From the NCBI GenBank assembly GCA_964187785.1, contig OZ076419.1, positions 36,394,001 to 36,458,000 of the forward strand: a DNA stretch of 64,000 bases. Reading direction: 5' to 3'. The notes under the pieces were generated by a model. That model made no database searches, was not told where the DNA came from, and was given only the letters and a program-made list of their open reading frames with translations. A program made the position numbers and the translations under genes. Shown here in pieces: positions 16,966-64,000 of the stretch (position 1 is the first letter of the stretch; each line of letters starts with the position of its first letter). The DNA comes from Amphiscolops sp. MND2022. Taxonomy: Eukaryota.

Positions 16966-17181
16966 GAGACCGTTTTTGAGACCAATTTTTTGAGACCGTA
17001 TTACACATTACTGAAGTCAGATGACTTAAAGCGTAGTCGCATGAAAATACTGCCAATATCAATGATAAAATATTGATCGTTTTTCGTTTGATGAGTTTTT
17101 ACTTCGAAACTATAACGACTCCAGGAGCGTTGAGAAAAATAAATATTCGAAATTATTAAACAATCTTTTAAAATCCAGGAA

Positions 17182-36542: not shown

Positions 36543-39500
36543 CAAGTTGACAGTCTCTGAAACAAAAACATATACCAATCAATATTATCTTTTTTCCAAA
36601 TCAAAACGTATCTTATCGAACAAAAATCAGTTCTCAAATTTAGAAAGGTCCTGAACTTGAAATCCTTGGCTTTCATTCAAGTTGTTCGGCCATAAATAAA
36701 GAAGGCCAAAAGGAAGCTTTGAAAAGAATTGTAGTACTGAAAGTATTACTATACTACTGAAAGTAATTCTACATTGTCAAAAAAAAGATTAATTTGAACA
36801 TTGTTTGTTGATAGACGGCAACCAGGTTATGGACCGCTGTTTGCCTTTGAAGAATCCAGAAAACGTTAAAGAATTTACGAATATACGAAGAATCTTCAGA
36901 ACAGTTGTTAGGCATGCTGCCATTTCTTATTATGATTGTGAAGATTCCACAAACATAATTGAAAATAAGGGCTTTTGTGAAGAATCCAGGAAAGCTTGTG
37001 AAGAATCCAGAAAACTTTGAAGAATTGACGAAAATCGAAGAATCTTCACACCCATTATTAAACATGGGAATCATATATTATTAATATTGTGAAGAATCCA
37101 CAAAACCATTTCCTCATTTCTTGAAAATTCCACTTTTACACTCTAATATTATTGTCTGAATTCTTCCGTCAAATCGGCGACACTTTGAAGTTCACTTTTT
37201 CCTCATTTCTAGAAAACACATTTTGGTAGTCGCAAAAGCCAATTTTCCTCAATTCTTGAAAACACAAAGTTCCCTGTTTTGCGTCGTCTGGCAGCTTTGT
37301 ACTTGGTCGGGAAATGACTTGACGCATCACTTTCATGATGACCGTGCCTCAAGCTCTTACAGCTTCGGGAGCGGAGGTGTTCAACAAAGCAGACCCTTGC
37401 AGTTGTTTGCTGTCCCTCCTTCAACTCAACAGTCTCTGCAACCTGCGCATCCTCAAGCTAGAGAGCCCGCGGGCTCTCAAGCACCCCCTCATCGCAGACC
37501 AACTCCTCCAGACATGTCAAGTCGCTTTTCCACAGAACAAGCAACCTTGTCTGCACTTCAAGCAATGGCAGCCAACCCAGACTATTCCATCTTCATGCGA
37601 AATACCGAGTATTCCCGCTAAACCTATTAACTCTATTCCAAATGCCAACCCTGCTGCAGACCAACCAGGCCACCCCAATACGGTGCCTCCGATCGCAGTC
37701 TTTCACCCTCCTGTGCCTCGACTTCCACTCAAAATGGTGGAGAACGCCGCCCAGCATCCAGGAAGCGCAATGAACGCTCCCCACCTCAATCTAAAGCTCC
37801 GAGGCACCAAAATGTGAGAAACAGCTCGTCAAGCAACCCACAACCTGTCAATAAGGCCTCAAATGAAAAAACACCAATTAGCAAGCTATGTCAATAGAAA
37901 TCAGTGGTGTCGGAAGCGTCCGTGCTTTCGCCACCTTCATCCCCTCTATTGCTTGAGTCAAACCCACCGCAACCGCCATCTTCCGCATACCAGATCCCCA
38001 GCGAACCATGAAAGACATAATGCACGAGTATCCAGACTCAAAGGTGAAAAACAGTGGACCCACTGGTACTCCCTTAAGGAAACAAGCGGTGCAGAATCCC
38101 GGCGGTAAGAGGACCTTCATGAAGCAACCCACCCACCTACCGCCAATGCCAAATGCCAAGGGAACGTTAGTGACATAGGGCGCCAGACGGACGCAGCAGT
38201 CATTGTCTCCCCTGGATGGCTGTACGAAAAGAATATGTGTCCCCCTAATGATGATGAACATGCTACTATGAAAAAAATGAATGACTCGGTATTCCTGGGA
38301 AGACCCCTACGAGCTGACTACACACAAACTTCTGAGTCTGCGTGGCTCAGTAGAGCAGTGAACATACTACCTAGCGTTGAGGACAATTACCTGGAATCGC
38401 TGAACCTCGGCCTACGGGACCAGTTCGAAGAGCGGTCATTACAGTGCCAAAAGTGTTTTGAATTTTGGCAGTGGATTTCGCTGGACGTCAGTTTTGGAAA
38501 GCGTACAGCGTAATCCACTAACAAATGCTGTTACGTTGCAGTCAATTCCACTTTTTTGAAAACTTCTTTGCTGTGATTTTCGCTGCAATGCATTGGATTC
38601 TACTATCAACTACTTTCAACAATCGAATCTTGCAGTGGATTCCACGTAACACTTCATGTGGGAGATTCAAATTATTCAGCTTTCACAAAATCAACACAAT
38701 TTCACAGAATTTGAGCGTTCAAAATAAGTTTGTCATGGATTAAGTTTTACATGATTTGAGTGGATTACGAACTTTTCTTAGCCGCGTATAGATTTGAGTG
38801 GATTACCGCGTTGTGGATTCCACTTTGGATTACAGTCAATTCCATTCGTTTTGCAAGTTGACAGTCTCTGAAACAAAAACATATACCAATCAATATTATC
38901 TTTTTTCCAAATCAAAACGTATCTTATCGAACAAAAATCAGTTCTCAAATTTAGAAAGGTCCTGAACTTGAAATCCTTGGCTTTCATTCAAGTTGTTCGG
39001 CCATAAATAAAGAAGGCCAAAAGGAAGCTTTGAAAAGAATTGTAGTACTGAAAGTATTACTATACTACTGAAAGTAATTCTACATTGTCAAAAAAAAGAT
39101 TAATTTGAACATTGTTTGTTGATAGACGGCAACGAGGTTATGGACCGCTGTTTGCCTTTGAAGAATCCAGAAAACGTTAAAGAATTTACGAATATACGAA
39201 GAATCTTCAGAACAGTTGTTAGGCATGCTGCCATTTCTTATTATGATTGTGAAGATTCCACAAACATAATTGAAAATAAGGGCTTTTGTGAAGAATCCAG
39301 GAAAGCTTGTGAAGAATCCAGAAAACTTTGAAGAATTGACGAAAATCGAAGAATCTTCACACCCATTATTAAACATGGGAATCATATATTATTAATATTG
39401 TGAAGAATCCACAAAACCATTTCCTCATTTCTTGAAAATTCCACTTTTACACTCTAATATTATTGTCTGAATTCTTCCGTCAAATCGGCGACACTTTGAA

Positions 39501-41164
39501 GTTCACTTTTTCCTCATTTCTAGAAAACACATTTTGGTAGTCGCAAAAGCCAATTTTCCTCAATTCTTGAAAACACAAAGTTCCCTGTTTTGCGTCGTCT
39601 GGCAGCTTTGTACTTGGTCGGGAAATGACTTGACGCATCACTTTCATGATGACCGTGCCTCAAGCTCTTACAGCTTCGGGAGCGGAGGTGTTCAACAAAG
39701 CAGACCCTTGCAGTTGTTTGCTGTCCCTCCTTCAACTCAACAGTCTCTGCAACCTGCGCATCCTCAAGCTAGAGAGCCCGCGGGCTCTCAAGCACCCCCT
39801 CATCGCAGACCAACTCCTCCAGACATGTCAAGTCGCTTTTCCACAGAACAAGCAACCTTGTCTGCACTTCAAGCAATGGCAGCCAACCCAGACTATTCCA
39901 TCTTCATGCGAAATACCGAGTATTCCCGCTAAACCTATTAACTCTATTCCAAATGCCAACCCTGCTGCAGACCAACCAGGCCACCCCAATACGGTGCCTC
40001 CGATCGCAGTCTTTCACCCTCCTGTGCCTCGACTTCCACTCAAAATGGTGGAGAACGCCGCCCAGCATCCAGGAAGCGCAATGAACGCTCCCCACCTCAA
40101 TCTAAAGCTCCGAGGCACCAAAATGTGAGAAACAGCTCGTCAAGCAACCCACAACCTGTCAATAAGGCCTCAAATGAAAAAACACCAATTAGCAAGCTAT
40201 GTCAATAGAAATCAGTGGTGTCGGAAGCGTCCGTGCTTTCGCCATCTTCATCCCCTCTATTGCTTGAGTCAAACCCACCGCAACCGCCATCTTCCGCATA
40301 CCAGATCCCCAGCGAACCATGAAAGACATAATGCACGAGTATCCAGACTCAAAGGTGAAAAACAGTGGACCCACTGGTACTCCCTTAAGGAAACAAGCGG
40401 TGCAGAATCCCGGCGGTAAGAGGACCTTCATGAAGCAACCCACCCACCTACCGCAAATGCCAAATGCCAAGGGAACGTTAGTGACATAGGGCGCCAGACG
40501 GACGCAGCAGTCATTGTCTCCCCTGGATGGCTGTACGAAAAGAATATGTGTCCCCCTAATGATGATGAACATGCTACTATGAAAAAAATGAATGACTCGG
40601 TATTCCTGGGAAGACCCCTACGAGCTGACTACACACAAACTTCTGAGTCTGCGTGGCTCAGTAGAGCAGTGAACATACTACCTAGCGTTGAGGACAATTA
40701 CTTGGAATCGCTGAACCTCGGCCTACGGGACCAGTTCGAAGAGCGGTCATTACAGTGCCAAAAGTGTTTTGAATTTTGGCAGTGGATTTCGCTGGACGTC
40801 AGTTTTGGAAAGCGTACAGCGTAATCCACTAACAAATGCTGTTACGTTGCAGTCAATTCCACTTTTTTGAAAACTTCTTTGCTGTGATTTTCGCTGCAAT
40901 GCATTGGATTCTACTATCAACTACTTTCAACAATCGAATCTTGCAGTGGATTCCACGTAACACTTCATGTGGGAGATTCAAATTATTCAGCTTTCACAAA
41001 ATCAACACAATTTCACAGAATTTGAGCGTTCAAAATAAGTTTGTCATGGATTAAGTTTTACATGATTTGAGTGGATTACGAACTTTTCTTAGCCGCGTAT
41101 AGATTTGAGTGGATTACCGCGTTGTGGATTCCACTTTGGATTACAGTCAATTCCATTCGTTTTG
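36543..41164 (+). repeat. Tandem duplication of a 2311-bp unit (36543-38853 and 38854-41164)
   Basis: Every ORF repeats at +2311. I saw only 4 substitutions (C/G at ~36821, C/T at ~37934, C/A at ~38146, C/T at ~38390). Confidence 0.97.
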
Positions 41165-41449
41165 CAGTCAATTCCACAAGTTGAATAGTGGAATCGACTG
41201 CATGCCAAAGTGGAATTGGCTCCAAGCCAAAGTGGAATCGACTGTAAGCCGAAGTGGAATCCACTGCACTTTTCAGCGAATTTCACTGAAATTGAAATAG
41301 GCTGAAGCGATTGGTTCAGTTCAGGTGGCAATGGAAAGCAGTGGGGTTTGGTGCACCCATTTTTGTACATTAGCAAGATATGTTGGTGGAATCCAAAACA
41401 AGCTACAGCGGAATCCATTGAAAACCAGTGAAAAACATGTTTAATAATA

Positions 41450-44780: not shown

Positions 44781-44980
44781 NNNNNNNNNNNNNNNNNNNN
44801 NNNNNNNNNNNNNNNNNNNNNNNNNNNNNNNNNNNNNNNNNNNNNNNNNNNNNNNNNNNNNNNNNNNNNNNNNNNNNNNNNNNNNNNNNNNNNNNNNNNN
44901 NNNNNNNNNNNNNNNNNNNNNNNNNNNNNNNNNNNNNNNNNNNNNNNNNNNNNNNNNNNNNNNNNNNNNNNNNNNNNNNN
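44781..44980. other. Assembly gap (200 N)
   Basis: Run of N. Confidence 1.
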
Positions 44981-45430: not shown

Positions 45431-45510
45431 AGACACTGATCATTGCCAGGCCTGTCGTCCGTGTCCAAATTTTTCAAAATGCTTCAAACTTCTGTTGCCG
45501 AGAACGTGTC

Positions 45511-47572
45511 TGTCGCAGCCCTCTAGGAGCAGCGAAATAACGAATACAAGGAGAACGCCAGAGGAAGGAAATAGAGAAATCAACCAGAAAGGGACCGAAT
45601 AAGAACATCATTCACCCTGAAAGAAACAATTAACAAACAACCCATCTAAACTATCCAACAAACATTATTAACCCAGCGCAGTACCTAAAATACATAAATA
45701 TGTAAATACTTAAATAATATTAAAGTGCTATTAGTGTGATTTGTTTACAGTAAAGCGACCAGCATATTGACCGAAATTAACTCAGCCAACACGCTGATCA
45801 ATTTACCGCTACAATAACAATGGAGCTAAAGCAGATTAAATTTCATTCCAATTTCATCGGACCAATCAGCGATTAGCGCAAATTCACCGCGCTAGCTGAA
45901 CAGCAATACCAGGCAGCTCACCAGTCGACCGAGTGCTGGGTCGCACGCCTGGTCGCACGCTTGAAACAACTGAAGCAATAGTATTACTGTATAGTATGTT
46001 GTGCTATTCTATCGTAAACACAGAGCTTAAAAGAAGCTCAAACCACAAATAAATAACTGATGGAAATAATGAAGGGTCTAAATGATGAAAGTATTTGTTT
46101 TATTATTTAGGTCAACCGCCTGGTCACCCAACTCTACTTTCCAAATGGGACAACCACCGGGACAACCGATCAAATATAGTTGATATTACTGTGCATTAAT
46201 TATTAGTGTAACTTGGATAATATTGTTAATTTGTCCTGATCCCCCCACCAGAGCAATATTTCGTTCGTTTTGTAGTTTTTTTATTCAAATATTACTGTGT
46301 TGGTAGAGCCCCACCCCGGTTCGACCGCCGGGGCAACTGCTTAGTTGAGAACGAATGAAAGATTAACTACATTGTGACAAGTGCTGATTATTAATTTGTT
46401 ATGAACGTTTATTGATTGAATGGCATATAATACTCACTAAAGCCATTAAAGTTGCGTTAAACCCCCCCCCCACTGTGTTGATTAACGATGTTCAATATCC
46501 GGTCAAGTGTTCCGGAAAATTTCAGTTTAACACTCCGCCCTGGCATTCGACCAGAACTTTAACCAACGAATTAATCCACCCAAATTGATCATTTTGTGTT
46601 CAGTTGATGAGAATAATAATGCCCGAATTCATATTTTTCCTAATTTAGTGCAGTTTTATTTTATTTAGAGTTTCATTTTCTTCGATGTAAACTTCATTTC
46701 CTTTTCCCGCCTCAGTAGCTAGGTTCATGAATTTCAGTGCTAACTTCAGTTCGGCGTCTTGAATTGGCGGGAAATGAAGAGGAAAGGTACGCGGAATTGG
46801 GACTTCGGCAGGAAGTTGATTCCCACTTTTCCTTTGAAGTGAGATGAAGCCGAAAGCCGAGTCCCGAGGAAGCGTACCTGACTTGGATTTTCTTGCCTCG
46901 GAAGGACGCCGAGCTGAACGAAGTGTGAATTCGCGAGCGGGATTTATCCCGCGTGTCTAGCGCAATGTATAAATACCTGAAGTGGGAAAAGGAAAAGGAC
47001 ATTGTTATTTTGATTTCGCGAAAGCTCAACTTTGATTTGTAATTCCCGAAACTTTGAATTTTGAGTTTTCAATTATTGATTGTACTCTTTTATTTGCTTG
47101 CGAACGTTTTCTTTGGATTTGAGACTGTATCTTTGCATTGGAACAAGCTTGTTCTAGAAACTCTTGATTTGTTCAACCACCAGTTAAACCAGTCGAATTA
47201 ACCTGTTTGGTCAACTAAACTTTTCGACGATGCCCGAGAAATCTCAGAAAAGGAAACTTAGGAGTGACCCAAGTAGTAGTTTGGAAAATGTCGAGTCTAC
47301 AAGCCAGGCTTCTGATGAAAATACTTGCTTGACTGATCAAGACTTCTCAGATATTTCAAACAAGATTGAAAATCGACTGTCCAAAAGACTAAGAGACGCA
47401 GAATTTGGACAAAGAAAAATTTTGAAATTAATCGAAAATCTAGCCGCGAAAGTAGATGGTCTTTCAAATTCCGCCACTGAACCTCCAGGTTCAATTCTAC
47501 GACATGATATCGAGCCTGAATCGATAGGGAACTCCGAACCCATCGGCAATTTAGTGAACGTTAGTTCCAACA
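45511..47572 (+). mobile_element. 5' LTR (2062 bp)
   Basis: Matches 59133-61152 from TGTCGCAGCC to TTAGTTCCAACA; carries a ~40-bp insertion near 46536-46577 relative to the 3' LTR. Confidence 0.95.
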
Positions 47573-48624
47573 TGGTGACAGGAGTCTCTGCGAACCATCA
47601 AGAAAATCATCAACGATCATCAAGTCTGCCACCTCCAAACCAGAAGTATCCCGATGACATCATTGATAAACTGTTACAATCGCTGCAAACGGCAACAACA
47701 AACAACTCAGGCGTCCCCAGGCTACCAAAAGCCATGTCCACTACGATGCCGACTTTCGACGGGAAAACGGACAAGTTCGAGCACTTTGAGGACCTTTTCC
47801 AGACAAGCCTCAAAGTATACCCGAACATCACTGAAGAAGAAAAGATCCATTACTTTCACTCCCTCCTGAGAGGCGAAGCGTTACAAACATTCAGGAACAT
47901 GACGGAAGCAACACGTGAACACCTGAATGACATCCTGGCAGGCTTCCGCAGGAGATACGTCCGACAGCAGTCAGTGGCAACTGCACGGTGCAAATGGGAA
48001 AATCTGTCATTTAACCCAAGCCAACAAACCTTCCCAGACTTCTTGGAGCAATACCAAAAACTAGCACAAGAAGCCTATGGAGAGGACGCCCCCCGATTCA
48101 TAGAAACATCCTTCTATGCAAAAATGCCACCACACCTCAAGAAGGTCCTAAACCAGGCAAGACTAGAAACAGAATCGTACGAGACAATGGTACAGCACTT
48201 GGAACGAGAAATCGAACTCAATGGACTCGCTACCAACGACAGCCTTTCAATCACAGGAGTCCACAACATCGAACCCAGTTCACAACAACAGCAACAAAAC
48301 AACCCCCCCAGAACAACGGGACCATGCTTTGGGTGCGCCAACCCAGGTCACCTCCTACGAAACTGCAGGAAAACCAATCGGGACAAACGATCCCAAAAAA
48401 CAAACGCCCCAACTCAATCCACTCCCTGCGAGACATGTGGCAAAATGAGCCACGAAACGAAAGACTGCTTCTCTGGAGCGAATTGGGCAAACCGCCCCTC
48501 ATGGTGGAAAACACCTAAAACAACGCCCCCCAATAATATTCCCATCACACAAAACCCACAAACGATCCCGATGCAGCAGCCACAAACCATGGCACCACCA
48601 GAAATGGAGTCAAAAAACTCCTAA
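47230..48624 (+). CDS. gag: Gag (464 aa) with two CCHC zinc knuckles; ORF opens inside the 5' LTR
   Basis: Capsid-like region plus CFGCANPGHLLRNC and CETCGKMSHETKDC. Confidence 0.93.
   Translation: MPEKSQKRKLRSDPSSSLENVESTSQASDENTCLTDQDFSDISNKIENRLSKRLRDAEFGQRKILKLIENLAAKVDGLSNSATEPPGSILRHDIEPESIGNSEPIGNLVNVSSNMVTGVSANHQENHQRSSSLPPPNQKYPDDIIDKLLQSLQTATTNNSGVPRLPKAMSTTMPTFDGKTDKFEHFEDLFQTSLKVYPNITEEEKIHYFHSLLRGEALQTFRNMTEATREHLNDILAGFRRRYVRQQSVATARCKWENLSFNPSQQTFPDFLEQYQKLAQEAYGEDAPRFIETSFYAKMPPHLKKVLNQARLETESYETMVQHLEREIELNGLATNDSLSITGVHNIEPSSQQQQQNNPPRTTGPCFGCANPGHLLRNCRKTNRDKRSQKTNAPTQSTPCETCGKMSHETKDCFSGANWANRPSWWKTPKTTPPNNIPITQNPQTIPMQQPQTMAPPEMESKNS
47573..47585 (+). promoter_or_regulatory. 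Primer-binding site TGGTGACAGGAGT, probably tRNA-Leu
   Basis: Begins immediately after the LTR-terminal CA defined by the LTR pair. Confidence 0.8.
48612..48618 (+). promoter_or_regulatory. -1 ribosomal frameshift slippery heptamer A AAA AAC
   Basis: X XXY YYZ phasing is correct in the gag frame, two codons before the gag stop. The -1 frame is open from here into the pol ORF (KKLLKPRLRFGDY...DLEMF). Confidence 0.8.
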
Positions 48625-48704
48625 AGCCACGTCTTCGCTTCGGGGATTATATCGATTACCGATTTTACACAACATCCGAACCCCCGAAGGACCACGATTT
48701 AGAG

Positions 48705-51700
48705 ATGTTCGCAGAGTGTTCCGGTGAACCATCTACCGACTGGCAGCGGAGATGGCTCATACGGCGCCTCATCAAGTTCAACAAATCCACCGTTGACAAA
48801 TTGCAATATCCAGAATGGTACCAAGAAAACCCTCAACTCTACAATACAACCCGACGCCCTCTCCCTCCCAGTTCAACTCCTCTCACCTACATACTCGACC
48901 CAGACTACGACTGTGACCCCTACCACAACCCTGACCTATACGACCAAACTACCCTAACCTTCAAAGAGACGATCAATGTACCCTTCCACGCATTCGCCAA
49001 GAAAACAAACATGAATCTGGACACCACAAAGCGGAAAGATGATGGCAACCTCAGTCACTCACCCGTACAACACGCCGAAGAACAAAACGAGGAAATACAA
49101 GTTATCGTCACACCCCCTACGATCTCTCTGAGACCAATCCTCAAACCACAAATCACCAATTCGACCGAATACGGGTCACCCGCAAGAGTTCCGGCACACA
49201 CAAATGAAATCCGGGCTGCAATGACGTCATCGCCATCATCTCCCCAAAGCCCTGAATTCCCAATAAAGGATAGCTCCGTCCACCCAACAAACTCAACTAC
49301 AGGCACGACAACTACACACAAAGAAGGGGACCCTTCCGACAATCCTGCAAATACAACCAACGCTAATACAGCCCCAAAGACGAGGCGGATCAAACGAGCA
49401 CTGACATGCGAATTCAATCAAAATCCGCACCCAAACCCCAAACCGGTAGATACCCAACAAGATAACAAAAACCCACTGATACAACTGGATGAAGACCAGC
49501 TAGTCAACATCACCTCCACGAACAATCCAACGGGAGAACGATGCCTCCCAATATTCTCAGCAATTGCTCTCAAACAGAAAAGGCGCATGCTATTCGCACC
49601 GATGGATTTCCAACATTTTTCCATTGACGCCCTCATTGACTCCGGGGCCTTGGTCAATTGCATGCCCGAACAAGAGTACCAAAAACTCAAAACCATGAGC
49701 CCCAATAATCTCCTACAAGAATCTGACCCACCGCCGTTCAAACTACAAGTCGCAAATGGCGACATTGAAACCCCGATCAAGACTATCCAAGTGCAGTTTG
49801 AAATCGGCGACTGGACGTTCAAAGAGACATTCATAGTAGCCAGCAAAATCAATGGCCCCATTCTCGGCCTCACCTTTCTCAAAACCAACAGCGCCATCCT
49901 CGACGCAAGCCAGGGACTTCTCCACTTCCCTCATCTAACCTACGCAATAAACCCAGTGTCCGAAGAACAACCAGCGAAACCAAACAAGGTGTCCATCCCC
50001 AACCAAACGACACTGGCCCCTGACCAATGCATCACAATCGAAGCCCTAGTCAACATAAGGGCTATAGCAGACACTACTGGCGTCATCCACCCACTCCCAA
50101 ACTATTCTGAAGACAAACAAATAGTGATCGCCAGCTCACTATCCACAGTCCACGAAATGAAAATACCCATCCGGATCACGAACACCTCACCTACCCCATT
50201 TACCATCAAAAAGAACACAGTGGTAGCTGAATTTCACATTACAACGCCCAACGAAGCGAAGAACATCAAACCCATCCCCATCGCCGCGCTCAAAATCCTA
50301 ACAGAGGACGACTCAGAACAGGCGCTAGAGTACGTAAACGAACTCTTAAAAACCACAGAAAAACCTGAGACCACCCAACAGTTCTGGTTCCCAACTCCAG
50401 ACAATCCGGGGGACCCATCAACCGACACCCCCGTCCAGAGAAGGATCCTCCGAGAAATCGAAGAACTAGAGGAAATCCAAAAACTCGACCCAACAACAAG
50501 CCCTCAAAGCAGACAAAAATTCCTCGAGAATTTTAAATGGGAGGACTCCCAATTGAACAGCCAAGACCGAGCTGACATAGAGAACATTCTGGTTGAATAC
50601 CATGACGTCTTCGCCCGTCACCGCCTGGACATAGGCGTCAACCACGACTTCAAAATAAAACTGACCCCGAAAAACGATCAGCCGGCCTACACGCAAAGCC
50701 TACCCTGCCCAGTGAATCTCAAAGAAGATCTTACAAAAGAACTGGCATTGATGCACTACTACGGCATCATTACCACGCTACCGTTTAGCAAATATGCAAG
50801 TCCCATATTTGCCCAGAGAAAACCAAACGGACGCCTCAGACTGCTAGTCGACCTCCGAAAGATCAACAATTTGATAGCGGACGACTACACAAATAACAAC
50901 CACCCGGTCAGCACCCTCTCAGACGCTGCCCAACACCTCGCAGGGAAAAAGCTATTCTGCAAGCTAGACTGCTCCCAGGCTTATCACGTCTTGCAAATGG
51001 CAGACAAAAAGTCGGTCGAACTCCTAGCTTTCAATTTCGCCAGTCGAACATTCGCATACCTCCGACTCGCACAAGGGCTCAGCAGGTCCCTCTCCTCCTT
51101 CTCGAGCTTCATGAGAGAATATCTCGATCGAGTCATCAAGGCTGACAAATGCGCTCAGTACGTTGACGACATCGGGATTGCCACCCACAACGCCGAGGAG
51201 CTGAAGACCAACCTGCGTGAGGTCTTCCAGTGCGTACGCGAAGCAGGCCTGCGTTTGACAATGGCCAAATGCCAGTTCGGTGCCAAGGAAGTCCAATTCC
51301 TTGGACGAACAGTGTCACCAGAAGGAATTGCCCCCCAAGATCAGAAGATCCACAACTACCTACAAAAACTGACCTTCCCAAAAACCAAAAAGGGTCTCCA
51401 GCGCTACATTGGCTTCGTCAACTACTACCGGAATTACATTCCCAGGCTTTCCGAAAAGATAGCCCCTTTCCACGAGCTCATCAAGGCTGAAAAGCCCATC
51501 AAGATCACAAACGAGATCATGAACTCCTTCACCAACATCAACAAATCCTTGGACAATGCCTGTGGTTTGTGGCTCAAACAACCTATGCCTAACAGACAAT
51601 ACGTACTCATGACCGATGCCAACTTCAAAAATGCAGGTTATGCACTCATGATCGAAGAAAACCCCGAAGAAAAAATCAGCTCAGTCCGAAAAACCTACGC

Positions 51701-54030
51701 ACCAGTGGCATTCGGGTCAAAAATGTTTTCCCCGTCACAAATTAAAATGTCGATCTACGCGAAAGAATTTCTGGCAATATACTTCGCTTTCATGGAGTAT
51801 AGCCACATTCTTTGGGAATCAACCAAACCGGTTGTCGTCCTCACCGACAATAAATCAGTGACAGGTTTCTTTCAAACCAAAATCATACCCCCGGCCCTCT
51901 GGAATGCCTGCGATTTTGTTCTTCAGTTTCACTTCACCATTGCTCATGTGCCGGGCAAAATGAACACTGCCGCGGACTTCCTGTCCCGCCTCGACCTTCA
52001 TCCAAAAGACAAGGTCCACCTCACAATAAGAGATGACATACGAACAACACCGATCCAGGTCAACATCCAGTCATCCGATGTCGCGGAAGAAGAACAATTT
52101 TTCTTCATGCCTGATGATGACACGGAAACTGAAGAACAAATATGGGAGTGCAAGCTCCGTGCACGAAAGAAAATTGCCGATGACAACAATAAAGAACCTG
52201 GCCCCGACGAAACCAATCCCAAAACACCAAACAATGACCAAGAAGTTACCATATTTCAAACGGAAATACTCGTAACCCAAGGACCACCCAAAGCTACCGA
52301 CGAACACGACGGTCCGTCGAAGACCATGAGGCAACAACAGGACCAAGACAATGTCCTGCGAAATTACAAACTCCGCTTGCTCAAGGAACCTCACAATGAA
52401 CAACTCTTGGCAACCGACCCCCGAGCAGCCAAATACAGCGCACAAGCCAACCGAATAATCCTAAAGGACGGACTGTTATACCGACAGTATTACGACCACG
52501 CAGGAAAGGTCAAATTCCTGCAAATCCTGTTACCTGCACATTTGGTTGACTCCTTCATCCTAGCGCACCATGGCCAAGCCAATAAACACCCCGGAATAGC
52601 CAAGGTAATACAGCAATGCAGAGAGAAATATTACTACCCAGGCATGGCAGCCAGAATAGCACACCACATCTCCAGGTGTACCGACTGCATGCAGACCAAA
52701 CGAACGGACAAACGATCCATTACACCACCAATGATCGACACTTCCAAACTGGCCCTAGGCCCAGAAGATGCACTTCAAATGGACATCGTCCCGTTTGATG
52801 AGCCTTCCGGTGGCTATAACGCGATTGTCACTGCAATGGACGTCTACTCGCGCTACCTCTTCACCTACAATGTCGTCAAAACGGACGCCCCCACAGTAGC
52901 CCGAGTTTTGGTCGACATCATGACCCGTCACGCCTACCTCCCTACTACAGTCATCACCGACAAGGGCACTCAGTTTATGTCTGAGGTAATGGCAGACGCG
53001 ACGAGAACCCTGGGCATACAACTCCGTCATGCTACCACTAAACATGCCCAAACCATCGGAATTTTAGAAAGAAGCCACGCCTCTCTGAAAGAATCGCTGA
53101 AAATCTCGACAGGAGAGCGCCGGACGATGTGGCATCAATACGTAGCCATCGCCACGCTGAATTACAACACATCGTACCACTCCGCCTTAGGGTGTGAACC
53201 CAGCCGAGTGTTCCACGGGAGGATCCCATATAACGTGTTGGACCTCAAATTTGGCATACGAAACCAACAACCTACAACTACGACGACGAACATGGGAGAA
53301 GACATTCTACACAAAACACAGCAAATCAAGGAGGCGGTGAACAAAAACTTAATGCAGTCATACGTGCGATACAAACAGTATTACGACAAAAAAGCAAACG
53401 CCCACCCCCTCAATGTCAACGAATACTGTTACGCCTTACACCCAAAAGCGAATACCCAGGGAACCAAACTCCCATTCAAAGAATACCTCTGGACAGGGCC
53501 CTATATTATTGTGAAAGTGCTCCCCAACAACAATTACCTAATACGGAAACTACAGACAAACTATACACAAATCCTACACAGGATTCGCTTTGAAACCATG
53601 CCCTACCGACAAATCGCTCCCAGACAAACCTGTCTTGCCCAAAGATTACACCCCAGACAAGGAAGTAGACGTCTTCCACGACGATCTATATGCAGAGGCA
53701 TGGCAGTCCAATTTCGATGAGTACACCTCAACGACACCCCCATTTCAAACAGGACCCACAATAACAATTCCAGAGTCACACGACGATCTACCTACCCAAA
53801 CGGACAACCCAACGAATGACCCAGGAGATTTTCCCCTGGACCCTAACCCAAATGAACACCCAGGAAATGCCACGCTAAACGCCGATCCTGATGCCACTGA
53901 AAATGATACCCCAACCCCGAATTCTCCCCGAAAAAACAAATACAACTTAAGGGCAAACCCTCCATCAAATTGGAAGAAGGATTATGCTTATTATAATCCG
54001 ATAAATGCTGAACCCAACGCGACAGACTAA
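48705..54030 (+). CDS. pol: Pol polyprotein (protease, RT, RNase H, integrase); a 1-bp insertion near 53589 moves the last ~146 aa to another frame
   Basis: IDALIDSGA (protease); LLVDLRKIN, KLDCSQAY, YVDD (RT); MTDAN, EFLAI, TDNKS, AADFLSR (RNase H); HHCC, LQMDIVP, TDKGTQF, ILERSH, WTGPY (integrase). The tail ORF 53590-54030 continues RIRLKPCP...KYNLRANP. Confidence 0.96.
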
Positions 54031-54370: not shown

Positions 54371-57300
54371 TCATCGCCCGGATCCACGTTTCACTGACCC
54401 ACTAGAACTGCCTTTACCAGACGACGACCCAGACACACCACTTTGCCGAAGATCTTTCTTCATCTTGACGATCTCCGCAATACTGCCAGAACCACCCGCC
54501 TGCTTGACCGTTTTGCCGACAGATTTCACTGAAGGGGGAGTATTAACGGCGGAAGAAGTCCCAACATTCTCCTCAACAACAGATGCAGCATGCGAGAATT
54601 GCAACTCGGGTAACAATTTATCAGGAGACGCGGTCGCGGCATACAAGCCCAATCCAGCTCGTCGACGCCATTCCGATACTTGGTCCAGATAGTATGCATC
54701 GAAAGCATCTCGCAATCTTCGATACATATCACAGCGGGCATGAGCATACAACGGTCTCCATGGTGCAAACGAAGCGTCCTCCATGAAACCCTTCCCGTTC
54801 GGCAAATTGGTTTTCAGTTCTTCTAGACAGTCCCTGGTCAACAACTCTCCGGAGGCAAACTTCCTGAATGTCACATATGACTGACAAGCAAATATCGAAG
54901 ACAGCAGGATCTTTTTCGGCACCGAAGCTCCACTCAAGGACATATCCACGACAGGATAATTGACACACCGCGGAACCATCGCCAGTGCAGCAATTTGTAC
55001 CACCTTATCCAAATTCAGCCGGCAGTCTAGAAGTCCAGAATCCCGCAAGAATACAAAACTGTCCTTGATCGACGACACAACACGCCGATTCCGACGCCGT
55101 AACTCCACAAGAAGAGATTTGAACTCATTACTGGCCGCCTCACAATCCAACGATGCCAACCGCCCACAGTCAAGAAGACAAGTCGTCAAATCTTTGAACA
55201 ATTGAACTGCGTAAGACTCATCGCCCAACAACATCATATCAGGCGAAAAGCAGCTCAGATTTGAGGACAGGACAGACTTTGCATATGCCGACTGATTTAA
55301 CACCTTCAAGAATTCCGAAAGAAACCCATGGCACTCACGGAGGAAAGGCCGCCGAACAGCATCTCCACAAGCTGATAAGGCCACGGTCACAAGGGGCTCA
55401 CCACGAAGACACTCGACGAAAGGGATATTAGCCCACGTAGTCAAGGGACGACCGATGTACTGGCTCCACGCCTCGATCTCAGGCAGACTACTCAGCTTCT
55501 TGACTTTGCCCAGCAAACTCCAATAAAAATAGCAGAAATCGGCATAATTACGACAGGTGTAGTCAGTCACTGATTCATCAAACTGCTTCACAAAGTTGGC
55601 CTCAAAGCACGCAACAAGAACATGCAAGACACTCAATCGGGGCAACACTAGGGTATCCGACACAATGAGCTGACCAACGTCAAGAGGAGCCTTGCCCTTT
55701 GAAGGAAGAACAGTCCCCGTCTCTTTCAAGAATAGTGTCACATCGGCCCAATGATGTATCAACTCTGAGATAGCAGCACGCAAAGAAGGAAACGGCACCT
55801 GGCGCTGGCTTATACACACACGAAAAGTCGGCAGAGACTCTAACCAAGGCTGGTGGATGGCTCTAACCAAGCGCAATAGCAAATAGTCCAAAATAGCAAA
55901 TGGATCCAACAAGTTTGCACCAACTAAGCCAGCTTCACGAACGTGCTCTCTAAAGTCATCAGGGGTATACTCCAGCACAGGCAGTGGCACCGGTCGACCT
56001 TCGTCCTTGCACCACGAAGAAAACACATTGAAGAGCGTCGAAGGACAGCCCCGGACAGCAACTGGAGACTGATCAATTGGGAGAATCGCGAGGACGCGGG
56101 TCAGGCACTTGATCTCAGCATCGCACAGCCCAGGAGAGACTTCTTCCCACAGCACACAAACCTCGCGGACGACATCGCTAGCAAAGAAGTGGACATAACA
56201 CTGCACCCCAGTATCGTCACGTCGGAAAGAAATACTGAAGTCAGACAGCTTACAACCAGATTGCACCCGACGCAAAATTCGGGGATACAATGTCTGACAC
56301 AAAATAACAAATGACTCAGTTTTACTCCAGGTGGCCTGGGCATAGCTGGTCTCCACGGGGATGGTCGTCCTGAACTGACTCCACAAACGTCTAAGGAAGC
56401 TATGGGACCCGCCACTCCGCAACAATTCAAACAAACCCCCAACCAAGGTTGAGCAAGGCACATTAGAAACTACGCCCACAAGAGCGTCCACCTCATCCTC
56501 CTCGAACGCATTCTTTGGTCCAAGAACAACAGGGGGCGTCAGCTCAATTTCAGCACGCAACTCTGGTGATATGGTGGCAACAGCAATCTCATCAAACTTC
56601 TCTGTGTAGATGAAATCTTCATGGTCAAGCCGATATCGTCGGTCCTTTGCGAAATGAGTTTTGCGACCGAAATGCCTCCAGATTTCCAGCTCCCCACGCG
56701 ACAGAAACGAAACATCTTTACGGCAAATCGCACAATTGAACCCGTTTGGGTTCTTATCAGTCCTTCGGCTAACAAAGAGCCGAGGAATCGCATGTGTAGC
56801 CATCTCTCTGCGAAGAACATGACGCTCACTTTGCCGTTTTTTCCTTCTTTCGTACTTCGCAAACAACTGCTCTTGGTCTCCTCCTCAGCGTTCAGATGCC
56901 CACGGACTCGATGCAGTTGGATCCCTTTTTGCTTGAGCAGGCGCATGATTTCGTCCAGACCTACAAACAAAAATACAAACACTCATAACCAAGTCACCCC
57001 GAAACCTACTATCCCGCCCCTCTCCAATCAACTATCACTGAATCAAGAAATACACGGAGTATAAAGATGATAACTACTGATACTGGAAATGAGTCATAAG
57101 AGTGCAATACTAACGGCGCGACAATGAACGATCCTCCACACGACTCTGGGTCCGCTCCAACCGAACAGCTGCCTGGCCGAAAGCCAAAACCTGTGATGCC
57201 GACATACACACAGCACCTTCTGGCACATCCTTCAACCCAGCTAAAAAGAAGACCATGGGTGAACACAGTTCAGACAGACTGCATACACTAAAAAAAAAAA

Positions 57301-58307
57301 CGAAGGACAGACCAAATTAACAACCACTAATAACCCAACAACAAAACTATAATCACCTTTAACCCATTCATTGTGGATCACAGAGCGCTCCAGGCCTTCG
57401 GCAGGACGAGCATGCTGGGTCCGCCCCCGCTTAGGCTGATCACTGCACCCAGGCTCCTCGTTGGAAGCAAAGCCCCCCGTCACTGGCAAAACACCTTCAG
57501 AGTCCGTCGAATGAACCCCCGCAGACGTATGCATCCCAAATGGTGAGGAAACGACTATAATCAAAAATATATAAAGTATGGACAAATGACATGTGATAAC
57601 AAAGGAGAAGATTTACCCACCACTAGTCTCTACATTAGGTGCAGCTGACGCAGTAGCAGTTTTCCTGGCAGGTGTCCCAGAACAGGACCAACGACCACGC
57701 TTCACGGGACTGCGTTCAACGAAGGACACTTCGCGACGGACACGTTCCACAGTAGCTGGCACGCGAACAGAAGACCCAGGAACATAATCCTCATCATCAG
57801 AATCGTCAGACAAGCCTAAAACACAGACAAGGTGGATGAAACGACGCGTCTGTATACTAGCATGAAAAGTTAGCTGGCCACTAACAATTCGCTAAGGAAC
57901 TCACCCTTTAAATCATGCAAATAGTCCAATTCATGGCGGGCGTCACTAGCTGCTGAATGCACAGAATTTCCTCCATCATCATCATCATCATAGTCATCGG
58001 TATCCCCGCGGGGAACAACAACTTCACTCAGACTAGACCCAGATTTATCAGAGTCGCTGTCATCATCTTTTTCTCCAAATCCACGCCCACCACTAGACAC
58101 CGGAACTTCCAACTCAGCAGGAGAATCTCCAGCGACAGCCTCATCAGTTGTCTCAGCAATAATCAATTGCGATTCCTCCCCATTCCCTTCATCCAGACCA
58201 CTCGCGACTTCTCCTCCTCCTAACACTGCTTCACCCTCGCTCTCCATAACTCCAATCTTTCCTGCCTGTAACAGTCGTTGATCATCTTCGTCAGTCGAAT
58301 TTGACAT
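54371..58307 (-). CDS. Five-exon antisense accessory gene (~1170 aa), BED-like zinc finger plus hAT-transposase-like body
   Basis: Exons 58307-57905, 57815-57621, 57554-57357, 57240-57115 and 56960-54371. All four introns are GT-AG and phase 1, and exons 1-4 are open in the joined frame. One missing base near 56880 separates the start of exon 5 from the 831-aa ORF. Confidence 0.85.
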
Positions 58308-58588
58308 CGTTTGCAAGCAAATCAATCTAAGAATGTCAACACAGTGTTACCAATACGAAGACGTGGCGTAAAACCAACGAGATTACTACTATACAATATT
58401 ATTAGTATGACGTAATGGAAGTCATTCAGTCTGCCAGCTGAAAACTTTCCCATTCATGCAAGCGGCGTGAACAAAAGAAAAGAACGGAATTATCATTCAA
58501 TTACTCGACCATTCCGCAGAACAGCCGCTCAGCATTACTTACAAGTATTACTATTTATTGCATCCAATTTATTTACTCATCAGATCAA

Positions 58589-59224
58589 ATGAATTCATCG
58601 ACACTCAATTCCTCAACCGACTATTTCATTTTGGACCGCGACCAAGACGCTGCCCCAGTAAACCCCTGTGCACAATCAACACCTAAGGTGCATGGTGATA
58701 ATTGCGAAAATACTCAAACACCAATAATTGAGGATATTTACGAGATTATTAACACTGGGACGGAACATATTGTCCTTTATCATGAGTCGGCACCAATGTC
58801 CATATTAGCAACGGCCCAATCGGACACATTACCATACAGGAAATTTGTCAACTCCAACCCGATCATCCCGGATGACGAATTCACGAGCCCCCCTAGAAAT
58901 TACGAGAACATGGACAATTGGCTATACGGGCCGCACGATGGGACAATCAGCCCCGTCTCCAGTAATTCTAGTTCGATAGGTTACTTCTCAGGAAGTGACT
59001 GGTCAACCGATTCGTCCTGGCTATCTTACGATTCAATGGTACAATCTGTATTTCTTCCGCCAATATCGTCCCCTTTCAGGCCAATTTCTCCATTACCTCT
59101 CATAGTGGACGTCCCTCACCAAAGCAGGGGACTGTCGCAGCCCTCTAGGAGCAGCGAAATAACGAATACAAGGAGAACGCCAGAGGAAGGAAATAGAGAA
59201 ATCAACCAGAAAGGGACCGAATAA
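58589..59224 (+). CDS. Hypothetical 211-aa Ser/Pro-rich ORF running through the PPT into the 3' LTR
   Basis: Open frame only; no recognisable domain. Confidence 0.25.
   Translation: MNSSTLNSSTDYFILDRDQDAAPVNPCAQSTPKVHGDNCENTQTPIIEDIYEIINTGTEHIVLYHESAPMSILATAQSDTLPYRKFVNSNPIIPDDEFTSPPRNYENMDNWLYGPHDGTISPVSSNSSSIGYFSGSDWSTDSSWLSYDSMVQSVFLPPISSPFRPISPLPLIVDVPHQSRGLSQPSRSSEITNTRRTPEEGNREINQKGTE
59121..59132 (+). promoter_or_regulatory. Polypurine tract AAAGCAGGGGAC
   Basis: Immediately precedes the 3' LTR TGT at 59133. Confidence 0.85.
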
Positions 59225-61152
59225 GAACATCATTCACCCTGAAAGAAACAATTAACAAACAACCCATCTAAACTATCCAACAAACATTATTAACCCAGCG
59301 CAGTACCTAAAATACATAAATATGTAAATACTTAAATAATATTAAAGTGCTATTAGTGTGATTTGTTTACAGTAAAGCGACCAGCATATTGACCGAAATT
59401 AACTCAGCCAACACGCTGATCAATTTACCGCTACAATAGCAATGGAGCTAAAGCAGATTAAATTTCGTTCCAATTTCATCGGACCCATCAGCGATTAGCG
59501 CAAATTCACCGCGCTAGCTGAACAGCAATACCAGGCAGCTCACCAGTCGACCGAGTGCTGGGTCGCACGCCTGGTCGCACGCTTGAAAAAACTGAAGCAA
59601 TAGTATTACTGTATAATATGTTGTGCTATTCTATCGTGAACACAGAGCTTAAAAGAAGCTCAAACCACAAATAAATAACTGATAATAATAATGAAGGGTC
59701 CAAATGATGAAAGTATTTGTTTTATTATTTAGGTCAACCGCCTGGTCACCCAACTCTACTTTCCAAATGGGGCAACCACCGGGACAACCGATCAAATATA
59801 GTTGATATTATTGTGCATTAATTATTAGTGTAACTTGGATAATATTGTTAATGTGCCCTGATTCCCCCACCAGAGCAATATTTCGCTCGTTTTGTAGTAT
59901 TTTTGTTCAAATATTACTGTGTTGGTAGAGCCCTACCTCGGGTCGACCGCCGGGGCAACTGCTTAGTTGAGAATGAATGAAAGATTAACTACATTGTGAC
60001 AAGTGCTGATTATTAATTTGTTATGAACGTTTATTGATTGAATGGCATGTAATACTCACTAAAGCCATTAAAGTTGCGTTAAAACCCCCCCCCACTGTGT
60101 TGATTAATGATGTTCAATATCCGGTCAAGTGTTCCGGAAAATTTCAGTTTAACACTCAGTCCAAATTGATCATTTTGTGTTCAGTTGACGAGAATAATAA
60201 TGCCCGAATTCCCATTTTTCCTAATTTAGTGCAGTTTTATTTTGTTTAGAGTTTCATTTCTTCGGTGTAAACTTCATTTCCTTTTCCCGCTTCAGTAGCT
60301 AGGTTCATGAATTTCAGTGCTAACTTCGGTTCGGCGTCTTGAATTGGCGGGAAATGAAGAAGAAAGGTACGCGGAACTGGGACTTCGGCAGGAAGTTGAT
60401 TCCCACTTTTCCTTTGAAGTGAGATGAAGCCGAAAGCCGAGTCCCGAGGAAGCGTACCTGACTTGGATTTTCTTGCCTCGGAGGGACGCCGAGCTGAACG
60501 AAGTGTGAATTCACGCGCGGGATTTATCCCGCGTGTCTAGCGCAAAGTATAAATACCTGAAGTGGGAAAAGGAAAAGGACATTGATATTTTGATTTCGCG
60601 AAAGCTCAACCTTGATTTGTGATTTCCAAAACTTTGAATTTTGAGTTCTCAATTATTGATTGCACTCTTTTATTTGCTTGCGAACAATTTCCGTGGATTT
60701 GGAACTGTATCTCTGCATTGAAACAAGCTTGTTCTAGAACTTCTTGATTTGTTCAACCACCAGTTAAACCAGTCGAATTAACCTATTTGATCAACTAAAC
60801 TTTTCGACGATGCCCGAGAAATCTCAGAAAAGGAAACTTAGAAGTGATCCAAGTAGTAGTTTGGAAAATGTCGAGTCTACAAGCCAGGCTTCTGATGAAA
60901 ATACTTGCTTGACTGAACAAGACTTCTCAGATATCTCAAACAAGATTGAAAATCGACTATCCAAAAGACTAAGAGACGCAGAATTTGGACAAAGAGAAAT
61001 TTTGAAATTAATCGAAAATCTAGCCGCAAAGGTAGATGGCCTTTCAAATTCCGCCACTGAACCTTCAGGTTCACTTCTACGGCATGATATCGGGCCTGAA
61101 TCAATAGGGAATTCCGAACCTATCGGCAACTTAGTGAATGTTAGTTCCAACA
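59133..61152 (+). mobile_element. 3' LTR (2020 bp)
   Basis: Copy of 45511-47572. It includes the duplicated gag N-terminal ORF start at 60810. Confidence 0.95.
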
Positions 61153-61170
61153 ACTTTGATCACACCGCTC

Positions 61171-64000
61171 TGTTGCCAATGAAAACTTTCTATCTGCCGT
61201 GCACATTTTTAGGCAAAATCAACGTATAGATTAAAGCTTAGTGGAAGAACTAGTAGATTAAAGCTCAGATGAAAACTGTCTGTGTCTTTAGAGTAAATTG
61301 GTATGTATAGAGGCGTTTTTTCTTCTGATTGATTAAACAGCACGCAAACTTCAAACCGCTATACGTCTAGAAATGTAGAGGTTAGTAAGAAGGTCGTATC
61401 AAGATCCTAGAAAGGTGGAATTGAAAATGTTAAAAACAATTAGAAACCTTTTTTGTATGACAATCGATAGGGAAGATTATACCACGTTCAGTGCGGACAT
61501 TTGCAGTAAAAGTGTTTTCGAATTACCAAAATGTTCAAAGTGGTCAAGCTAAAACTGATCGAGTGGTAATTACAGAAAACACAGCAATCAGAAGGTGCAA
61601 TATTACATCTGTTGTAATGTCTAATTACAAGAATTTAGTTTGTGACAAAACTGTATTTTCTATCTATATCAAGCGCACTGAGCTGCAAATAAAATATAAA
61701 CTAGAATGAGATGTTAACAGGTACTTGAGACTAATTATATAGATTAAATAGCGTCTCATAGTTTGTCCTCTATATTCTTCTCATTCTTCATTCCCCTCTA
61801 TATGATTGGATAGTTGTTGTCCAATTGGGGGTCCGAGTTTTGTTTGTGGGCGGTAGGCAGACCCAAGCTTTGTGTTGCCATGGTTTCTCCGGTCGCGTCA
61901 TATGGTATGGTCCAGTCGTTTTGAAATTCTTCCGGACAGGCTTGTTGTTTGGATGTCTTCACTCGTTGGTTGGGCTCGCTTCTTGGTTGAGCCTTTTGAC
62001 GGTATTTCCTGTAATCAGAAGGTACTGGATTATTTAGTCTAAATAATTTTGTTAAACGTTTTGATCTACGTAGATTGTGTTCTTTTGTTTCTTGTTCTAT
62101 TTCAGTACTCGAACTAAGATTGCTCAACAGTTCTAGTTCGGAATTTTTTAGTTCATCTTCTTCTTCCTCGCCTCTTTTGGGGGTTTTTGTAACATAATGT
62201 GAGACCTTACCAATAGGGTCTTTGAGATGTATTTTTGTATCCGCTTCCCAAGCGTCTTCAATAGCGCAGTCGACAGTTTCGGTGGTCATGTTTTCCGTCA
62301 CTGTTGTCATTGGATCAAACGTGGTTTATGGTTGGACCGTTTGTGGTGATCCCCCGAGTGAGGCCGAACCTAATCGGTTTCTGATTAGTTTAAAGGGGCG
62401 TCCTCTTCCCAGAATACCGCTTTTCTTGGGGGTGACTGCTACCGGTGATTCCGGTTCCGTGTCTTCGGATTCGCTGTCCGAGTCGTGTATGGTGAAGGTC
62501 CGGGGTGATTCTGTGAATCGGCCAACCGGTCTACGGGGCCCAGTTCCTGTTGTTGGGTTTCTGTGCAATTTCAGAGATTGGTTTACTTTTAATTTTTCTA
62601 TGTAAAATTCTATTATCGGCCTTTGTGACGGTATGATTTGTACCCGATAGAGCTAATTGGGTTTTTCCGAATAAGCGCTACCAAATTTCGGTTTTGTTAC
62701 TTTTTTTCGTGAAAAAGGAAGGGGTAGTTACTAACTCTTTTCGCTCCTTTCTTCTGTTTCATCGGTAGCTGGTCAGAGACACCGCCAGCTCCGTTGAATG
62801 AGTACACCTGTAAAGTGTCTGGTTTAGCTGAAATACACGTTTGTGTTAGTTTTTTCAACGCGTCAATGTTTATTAAGTTGCTGATCCCTGTGTTTGGTTC
62901 ACGACCGTGGTGTAATTCAAATGCGGATTTATTTAGTCTTGTGTGGGGTGTTTCTCGCATTACATCTCAGGCCATGTCTAAAGCTTTTCCGCTTTTATGT
63001 TGGTTAACAGAATTTCTTTCAATGTTCGTACGCCCCGTTCCACCAGTCCGGCGGGAGTATGTATGTACGGTGTTCCGTATATCAATTTTATTCGGTGTTC
63101 TTCACAGAATTCTCTAAATGATCAGCTTGTGAAAGCGGTTGTCTTATCCGTTCTGATTTATTTCGGTATGCCGTATAAAATTATGTATTGTTCTAAAAAA
63201 TTTACTGTTGTTTGGCTTTCCGTTGATTTACAGAAGCTAGCCGCGGGCCATTTACAGAACCGGTCCAAAGAAAGTGAAATGCAAAATCTACGGTTCTTTT
63301 CGGTAAATGGACCGATGAAGTCCAATTGTATTTCTTCGTTTGGTTTGTTTAGCGGTGGTAATTGATTTTTTTCTCGTACTAGGTATGTTAGGTTTGATGT
63401 TCTTACCGGCCATTTTGCAGGGGGACATAGTTGCCACATTTCTTTTGAATGGCTCCGGTAATCCGGGGCCACCAGAAATGTCTTGCTGCCATTGACATTT
63501 TGTTTATTGCTGGGTGTCCCTTGTGTAGGAGGCTGATGACCGTCGTTCTTAGATTTTTCGGAACGTTAATTTTGTCTTCGTAAAAGACCAGTCCATATCT
63601 TGAAGATGGTTTCTTCTTGTATTTGGAGTAATCTTCATGGATGTAATCAGGTTGTTGTCGTTCAAGACATACCAGTGTTTTGAGCAGGCTCGGATTGTTA
63701 GTGGTTTCCGTCATCAGTAAATGTAGATCGGTTGCGATTTGTTGTTCAGTTTCCCTGACGGCATTTCCCAAGTCCCAGTTGTTTTGTTCGATGGCGTCTA
63801 CTTTGGGTGTGTGTCCCATTTTTATATACTGGACACGTTTTACGCCCACGTATTTGGCCCAGTTGATTGCCGGGACGTCTAGTACCGACGGGTTTTGTTC
63901 TGATTCCGATCCAATTTCGCCTTCCTCTATCGGTGTACATTGTTGTTGTCTCGGTGGCGGTGTGTTGTCGTTTTCTGTCAGAGTCTGTTGGCGTCGTGGA
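61171..64000 (-). mobile_element. 3' part of another degraded Gypsy element: integrase fragments, PPT (61791-61800) and probable 3' LTR (~61171-61790)
   Basis: LLHKGHPAINKM..RHFWWPRI..KC (HHCC) and PNEEIQLDFIGP..DRFCKWP (core) lie in broken frames. On the minus strand TAGAGGGGAA is followed by TGAAGAATG. The distal LTR end (TGTTGCC at 61171) is a guess. Confidence 0.8.

Follow-up and report, generated by a model that had tools for sequence, protein, structure and literature searches.

An antisense gene carried throughout a Gypsy-type retrotransposon clade encodes a protein with the predicted fold of a hAT transposase and replaced catalytic residues

We analyzed a 64,000-nucleotide stretch of the Amphiscolops sp. 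MND2022 genome (assembly GCA_964187785.1, contig OZ076419.1, forward-strand positions 36,394,001 to 36,458,000), referred to below as the window and numbered from its first letter. The window contains a 15.6-kb Gypsy-type long terminal repeat (LTR) retrotransposon, recognized by its TG...CA LTRs, primer binding site, polypurine tract and a gag gene followed by a pol gene with protease (PR), reverse transcriptase (RT), RNase H (RH) and integrase (IN) domains in that order (Table 1). Antisense to these genes, between pol and the 3′ LTR, lies a long open reading frame (ORF) that a preliminary description had presented as a captured, catalytically dead hAT transposase. We find that this antisense gene belongs to the whole retrotransposon clade and is held under purifying selection, and that the model predicted for its product clearly has a fold of the hAT transposase type.

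The minus-strand ORF at 54371–56803 encodes 810 amino acids between an ATG at 56803 and a stop at 54371, and its open frame extends to 56884 (837 codons) in the window's copy. A search of the same genome with this ORF scored 56 matches, 41 of them free of internal stops, and nucleotide changes among copies concentrate at third codon positions. Both properties indicate that the ORF is not a chance open frame. Seventeen sister copies possess an 870-codon frame, and the window's copy is broken near 56867 relative to its sister; the 5′ limit of 56866 given in the preliminary description marks this break and not the true end of the gene. The start is predicted to lie ~1.4 kb further upstream, with four added exons. 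This five-exon model is in frame from an ATG at 58307 and has introns of 89, 66, 116 and 154 nt. For elements L107, L103 and L155 the top-scoring splice chain also has five exons, with a last intron of 153–155 nt, and an 8-nt indel between sister copies maps inside a predicted intron. The splice-chain search returned no chain in two of six elements (L151 and L154) and 32–84 possible chains in each of the other four, and the exon borders are thus to be taken as predictions. In a distant clade of the L091/L109 type, the part of the gene that encodes the hAT fold is interrupted by two extra introns, around residues 167 and 365–390, which the window's clade lacks.

To place the gene in its genomic context, we collected related loci from the same genome, where each search scored 54–135 matches per query and counts are accordingly lower bounds. 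Among 71 loci picked by the antisense gene, at identities from 99% down to ~26%, 69 carry it in antisense orientation downstream of integrase or RT; of the other two, L123 is differently arranged and the sequence range of L128 is off. All 20 loci picked by integrase carry the antisense gene, some with deletions. The view that a retrotransposon captured this gene, first suggested from the window alone, and that its clade has retained it holds whichever gene is used to pick the loci. Copies are present on all 13 large contigs, and the gene, being multi-copy and situated within LTR elements at these 69 loci, is not a host-domesticated hAT gene. Its tree distances correlate with those of integrase (Spearman 0.90, 0/999 permutations) across the 56 loci with long segments, the other 15 being L123 or loci with short or missing segments; as kin share labels, this correlation shows co-descent only. 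Four deep clades are concordant between the two trees, and the antisense-gene tree is four times longer. Between subfamilies, the ratio of nonsynonymous to synonymous substitution rates (dN/dS) is 0.03–0.22 for the antisense gene and mostly 0.01–0.10 for IN and RT, in a comparison where many distant pairs are saturated. Very close pairs (L163/L169 and L095/L112) have ratios near or above 1 on few changes, and RT behaves likewise; we read these high values as drift after insertion. Two relatives, P0012 and P0186, find best matches of only 52% and 39% in the present genome, so that one or more further genomes probably also contain the family.

We next considered the fold of the antisense protein. 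A template-free AlphaFold2 model, computed from 35 family members (mean predicted local distance difference test score 75.9), was used for structural searches. In Foldseek, ranks 1–12 as shown are all Hermes transposase chains (best E 2e-4; next protein 6e-2). VIA scored Hermes at Z 12.3–13.1 across ~397 residues, with the following entry at 6.2, and aligned model residues 126/152–651 with Hermes 113/135–609 at 10–12% identity and a root-mean-square deviation (rmsd) of 5.1–6.0 Å. The matched Hermes span enters the dimerization region, takes in the RNase H-like core, the insertion domain and the C-terminal region, and so reaches far beyond the zinc finger. A Foldseek-free search of 48,161 chains left Hermes alone at Z ≥ 8 (12.3), followed by the ISCth4 transposase at 6.4; in a viral structure library the single match below E 0.001 was a hAT-family protein (E 8e-5); and all family-annotated neighbors in the ESM Atlas fall in the hAT clan (score 0.92). 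The hAT likeness claimed in the preliminary description is thereby borne out by predicted structure, while the closeness to ZBED/ZNF862-type members that it also claimed draws on the ESM Atlas neighbors only.

The predicted domain order, with a C2H2 finger, a helical dimerization region, an RNase H-like core, a large helical insertion and hATC-like helices, resembles that of hAT transposases such as Hermes and the Tip100/ZMYM1- and Buster-type neighbors in the ESM Atlas. Seven peptides earlier singled out as hAT landmarks do follow one another as described (residues 24–50, 188–207, 247–257, 337–352, 516–521, 560–563 and 596–611). Conservation is higher in the finger (0.64) and the dimerization region (0.65) than in the RNase H part (0.52). 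The finger's ligands are conserved and their spacing fits the BED pattern CX2CXnHX3-5H/C; Pfam gives no BED match, and the residues immediately preceding the first His vary by clade.

Several results weigh against descent from hAT transposases and need to be set beside the structural match. Pfam detected no hAT family in the protein, in 35 aligned relatives or in 50 distant relatives, and the Dimer_Tnp_hAT cut-off was passed by five of five host hATs and not by the antisense protein. Searches of PDB sequences with the protein and with its profile were empty. Comparison by hhalign with 61 Tip100/ZMYM1-type hATs reached E 0.07–0.11; the core alone gave E 0.098, hardly better than the 0.13 obtained when it was reversed, and hidden Markov models (HMMs) run in both directions against Tip100-type hATs performed no better than reversed decoys. 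The C-terminus alone scored E 0.006 against 0.47 for its reversed control. These hAT profiles were built from the Tip100-type subgroup only (61 or 120 sequences; L058 type). A DUF4371 search of the same genome had no match anywhere, an uninformative result. The ESM Atlas recognition value of 2279 is slightly below the 2300 mark. Hermes alignments of the whole model enter the dimerization domain, starting at model residues 126–158 and Hermes residues 113–141; the N-terminus folded separately had no significant structural match, and BED structures match the N-terminal model only at Foldseek E 3–5, beside RNA-binding fingers of what we take to be the U1 type. Only family members were among the matches listed in homolog searches (120 of 160 and 150 of 383), no catalytically intact relative flanked by terminal inverted repeats (TIRs) was among the matches scored, in searches that score best candidates only, and a metagenome scan yielded 485 pattern matches with none confirmed. 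As significant sequence homology is lacking, homology to hAT transposases rests on the predicted structure and on features of the model. We consider it highly probable that the protein is hAT-derived, non-cutting and functional. The same genome also contains host hAT transposase ORFs (L051–L055; 597–697 aa) of several subgroups with the usual motifs; no sequence similarity between these and the antisense gene was detected, the L058 type being the only one profiled.

Inspection of the catalytic positions supports the view that the protein does not cut DNA. The residue register comes from weak hhalign alignments and is uncertain by a few residues; in it, the first catalytic Asp aligns to Arg194 and the catalytic Glu to Asp620. 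Asp at position 194 is found in none of 71 aligned rows, and the 21 rows of one subclade that have Asp at 195 place it at the adjacent, non-catalytic position. At the second site, Asp occurs at 252 in five of the 71 rows and Glu at 251 in 20. The preliminary description noted that an ERxFS motif was missing, which is literally correct, yet 47 of 70 rows have D or E at the aligned position 620, in a stretch modeled as extended and not helical. The CxxH and RW motifs are replaced in all subfamilies and the full triad is present in none, whereas each of D, D, E, C, H and R is kept in 58–61 rows of the 61 true hATs; the missing catalytic residues pointed out in the window's copy are missing in the family as a whole. 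Neither in the window nor in 10 loci is the gene enclosed by inverted repeats, although old TIRs would no longer show, and no 8-bp target-site duplication was seen around it. Given the missing triad, CxxH, RW and TIRs, the protein falls outside the active hAT transposases. It differs from Hermes and other hAT transposases not only in these losses and in its location within an LTR element, but also in a predicted acidic N-terminal extension, extra helices at 651–715 and a divergence that places it below HMM detection.

The antisense gene has a divergent neighbor. This second accessory ORF, which crosses the polypurine tract into the 3′ LTR, is present in 17 of 17 elements (dN/dS 0.11–0.28) and in 19 of the 20 elements picked by integrase, and its protein has no Pfam match. 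A [VL]IDISS[DE] word, which we take to resemble a SUMO-interacting motif, occurs in all nine elements of the other main clade (2–12 per 1000 shuffles) and in none of six in the window's clade. The block between the two genes contains words that are presumably CRE-like and CCAAT-like and, judged from its sequence, is likely a bidirectional promoter and a junction for cassette swaps. Exchange of the antisense gene within clades was seen in four comparisons (L151 with L154, L109 with L163, L101 with L103, and L095 with L097). The first of these is exemplary: L151 and L154 are 94–100% identical over gag-pol and the sense ORF and have near-identical LTRs, whereas identity over the antisense gene is 35–77%, with saturated dS, and the breakpoints lie directly after pol and at the intergenic block.

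The LTRs themselves contain candidate binding sites. Across 15 LTRs there are 45 direct-repeat doublets with a period of 10–13 bp, about one helical turn. Control periods yield 7 and 9, and a resampled LTR contains about 0.6 on average. The doublet word is different in each of the four clades, and its period is 12 in one main clade and 11 in the other. A k-mer common to all LTR families was not found, and a top-repeat test was significant in only six of 13 LTRs (at 5/100). The LTR start looks similar to the ZBED1 site quoted in PMC7471704, a resemblance that we rejected as reflecting a common LTR end.

A mechanism consistent with these observations can be proposed. The ancestor of the clade would have acquired a hAT transposase gene in reverse orientation, an orientation in which introns survive reverse transcription. 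The gene would be transcribed from the conserved block, divergently from the second accessory ORF. Its two best-conserved parts, the zinc finger and the dimerization region, may bind as a multimer to the clade-specific 11–12-bp doublets of the LTR, much as the BED domains of Hermes do on short subterminal repeats (PMC10368747). The predicted low-complexity N-terminus could then recruit transcription machinery or displace host silencing, in the manner of Spm TnpA, VANC and ZBED1. Its acidic composition is typical of activation domains. Within this scheme, binding of the protein to its own LTR is the firmer part and appears probable, and activation as opposed to repression is an even call. By analogy with the regulators named, the antisense protein would be a transposase-derived, LTR-binding transcriptional activator or anti-silencer of its own element, a proposal to which we give roughly equal chances of being right and wrong. 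We more tentatively suggest, and regard as somewhat doubtful, that the two divergent genes form a counter-silencing cassette in which a dead hAT multimer reads the LTR doublets and a disordered partner counters the SUMO-dependent silencing exerted by the host, one of the two main clades having a SUMO-interacting-type motif in this partner; the cassette would be exchanged between backbones in an arms race, and would amount to Tax/TnpA-like autoregulation in a Gypsy element, assembled from a different class of transposon that the clade domesticated for its own use.

Further points count against this proposal. The present results do not separate activation from repression. Seven of the 15 LTRs, including that of the window, have only 0–2 doublets, and the LTRs are mutually related. 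The doublet word tracks the deep clade of pol and of the antisense gene alike, so that host factors could explain it. Finally, the gene has been exchanged between elements whose LTRs are 87–98% identical, which speaks against tight one-to-one co-evolution with the LTR; such swapping within a clade is compatible with LTR binding, since the doublet word is common within a clade.

A protein of the same origin that also bound the LTR could instead limit the element's own expression and copy number. Its antisense placement with a promoter-like block of its own would suit such a repressor, human T-cell leukemia virus (HTLV) antisense proteins are described as modulating sense transcription (the regulator analogy is drawn in PMC11963269 and PMC7264820), and the hAT-derived ZBED6 has been described as a repressor. 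We nonetheless think this unlikely, as the first exon is acidic and under selection and the clade has many young copies, with LTR identities of 98–99.9% in most complete elements.

Another explanation is that the fold serves as a scaffold only, and that the target of the protein is a host protein or RNA, in the latter case to export or protect unspliced genomic transcripts. The H-x5-H finger scores equally against U1/TUT-type fingers and BED, free exchange between elements that share an LTR and evolution four-fold faster than integrase would fit a host-facing factor, and CERV of the Cer1 element is described as an RNA-export accessory protein. Such a role would leave unaccounted for the clade-specific LTR doublets at a helical period and the apparent retention of the entire hAT architecture, dimerization region included, and seems rather improbable.

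A tethering function, in which the protein guides integration complexes to particular places in chromatin or particular DNA sequences, draws on the conserved DNA-binding parts and on one of 14 complete elements that sits in a tandem array resembling its LTR start. Among these elements, a small sample, 13 target-site duplications differ and share no common word, flanks share only short repeats in three, and copies are spread over all the large contigs; we accordingly judge targeting quite improbable. Lastly, the low Hermes identity, the rmsd of about 5 Å and the homology undetectable by sequence could suggest a functionless passenger, left by a hAT that long ago inserted into the element, or a helical/RNase H-like protein that resembles hATs by convergence only. 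A passenger is largely refuted by dN/dS far under 1, and both versions are very improbable given frames maintained across subfamilies down to ~26% identity, presence in 20 of 20 integrase-picked copies and a Hermes Z double that of the next chain.

Table 1. Features of the retrotransposon and its accessory genes in the window.
Feature	Position	Strand	Remarks
5′ LTR (TG...CA), ~2.06 kb	45511..47572	+	94–97% identity to 3′ LTR
Direct-repeat doublet, 12-bp period, candidate binding site	45939..45960	+	LTR position 429
Direct-repeat doublet, 12-bp period	46147..46167	+	LTR position 637; also in 77%-identity subfamily (L103 position 635)
gag, 464 aa, ATG within 5′ LTR	47230..48624	+	DUF1759 E 9e-7; weak Retrotrans_gag, zf-CCHC
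Primer binding site	47573..47584	+	identical 12-mer in 19/20 assembled elements
pol, PR-RT-RH-IN order (Pfam), −1 frame relative to gag	48537..53720	+	
Main exon of hAT-fold gene	54371..56960	-	long frame 54371–56884
hATC/catalytic-Glu region	54854..55033	-	Asp620 aligned to Glu; modeled as extended strand, not helix
Large helical insertion domain	55034..55933	-	CxxH, RW replaced
RNase H-like core, N-terminal part	55934..56245	-	Arg194 in place of first Asp; Asp not conserved at 251/252
Helical region, residues ~111–186, putatively equivalent to Hermes dimerization domain	56246..56473	-	
C2H2 zinc finger C24-x2-C27-x16-H44-x5-H50	56654..56734	-	ligands kept in 67–70 of 71 rows
Predicted exon 4	57115..57240	-	
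Predicted exon 3	57357..57554	-	
Predicted exon 2	57621..57815	-	
Predicted exon 1, acidic, contains start ATG (58307)	57905..58307	-	dN/dS 0.10–0.31
Intergenic block between two divergent genes	58308..58588	.	91–98% identical where flanks 40–70%
Second accessory ORF, 211 aa, Ser/Pro/acid-rich, crosses polypurine tract into 3′ LTR	58589..59224	+	divergent from antisense gene
Polypurine tract	59118..59132	+	read directly from sequence
3′ LTR	59133..61152	+	

The copy in the window is decayed. A 5-bp target-site duplication is present in 13 of the 14 complete elements examined, and the window's copy lacks one (45506–45510 versus 61153–61157); its LTRs are 94–97% identical with an indel, and its pol frame is interrupted near 53588. 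It is possibly recombinant or misassembled. Its gag reading frame begins in the 5′ LTR at 47230 and runs through the primer binding site, and an A-AAA-AAC heptamer at the gag/pol overlap (~48612) resembles what we take to be a −1 frameshift slippery site. Elsewhere, the window includes an assembly gap (44781–44980); a 2.3-kb head-to-tail duplication (36543–41166, 99.8% identical) that is either recent or an assembly artefact; a tandem repeat of 54-bp units, some of them inverted, through which a 288-codon frame stays open (16232–17098, minus strand); a 166-codon frame (23381–23881, plus strand) that by eye presumably resembles a SET-domain fragment; and other retroelement fragments at 98–928 (minus), 7918–10048 (plus) and 61798–64000 (minus), of which 9500–10048 matches pol at 32%.

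A comparison with known systems locates the antisense gene among several precedents. It qualifies as an antisense additional ORF (aORF-3R) and, like those of plant Ty3/Gypsy elements (Retand TRP28, Grande gene23, RIRE2 and the PMD of Ogre), is found in most copies on the opposite strand, behind pol and ahead of the 3′ LTR. The aORF-3R genes have their own promoter in Grande and have been proposed to encode nuclear regulators (PMC7264820; PMC11963269; PMC6317226). The antisense gene differs from the plant aORFs, which encode small domains whose origin is not established, in its near-whole transposase fold, predicted introns and divergent partner gene. The aORFs are stated to be without similarity to other transposable elements (PMC7264820), and where such accessory genes of LTR elements come from and what they do is described as an open question (PMC7264820; PMC11963269). 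Retand TRP28 bears only the Pfam name Transposase_28; this domain is reported in 506 Retand elements, and five supplement files of PMC6317226 contain no hAT or BED term. For PMD, passage from host genes to Mutator-like elements (MULEs) has been inferred (PMC5418596).

As an accessory regulator within a mobile element, a function that for the antisense protein is inferred, it would resemble Spm TnpA and VANDAL VANC. According to a preprint, TnpA evolved from an ancestral transposase and activates cognate Spm copies; the terms retrotransposon, LTR and gypsy do not occur in it (bioRxiv 10.64898/2026.08.24.746577). Whereas TnpA and VANC remain in DNA transposons, the antisense gene would have a class II donor and has a class I carrier, and it keeps a dead core where TnpA consists of a DNA-binding domain only. 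As a putative hAT-derived DNA-binding regulator it parallels ZBED1/DREF, ZBED6 and DAYSLEEPER, the first of which keeps its targets active through SUMOylation of Mi2a (PMC7471704); unlike these fixed host genes, it is multi-copy and moves with a retrotransposon. The ORF3s of bdelloid LTR elements (GDSL, DEDDy and env-like) are likewise captured, family-specific third genes shared between element types, but their catalytic residues are intact and none of them is a transposase, a word that occurs 0 times in PMC5408684. An LTR element with a hAT-derived gene was not found in a literature survey covering mostly titles and abstract openings and few subscription papers, with Repbase outside its scope. 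What appears new here, on the strength of the model, is that the antisense accessory gene carried by an LTR element corresponds to a near-whole, disarmed class II transposase within a two-gene cassette.

Transposases are known to have been domesticated by hosts or split into regulators inside DNA transposons; in the present case the keeper is a retrotransposon, in which the gene has stayed under selection while the entire clade radiated. The predicted fold gives one antisense accessory ORF a structural ancestry. With the candidate sites in the LTRs and the sequence variants that occur naturally in the four clades, its specificity is directly testable through cross-clade binding. Since ORFs of this kind can escape HMM detection, other orphan accessory ORFs may also be dead transposases.

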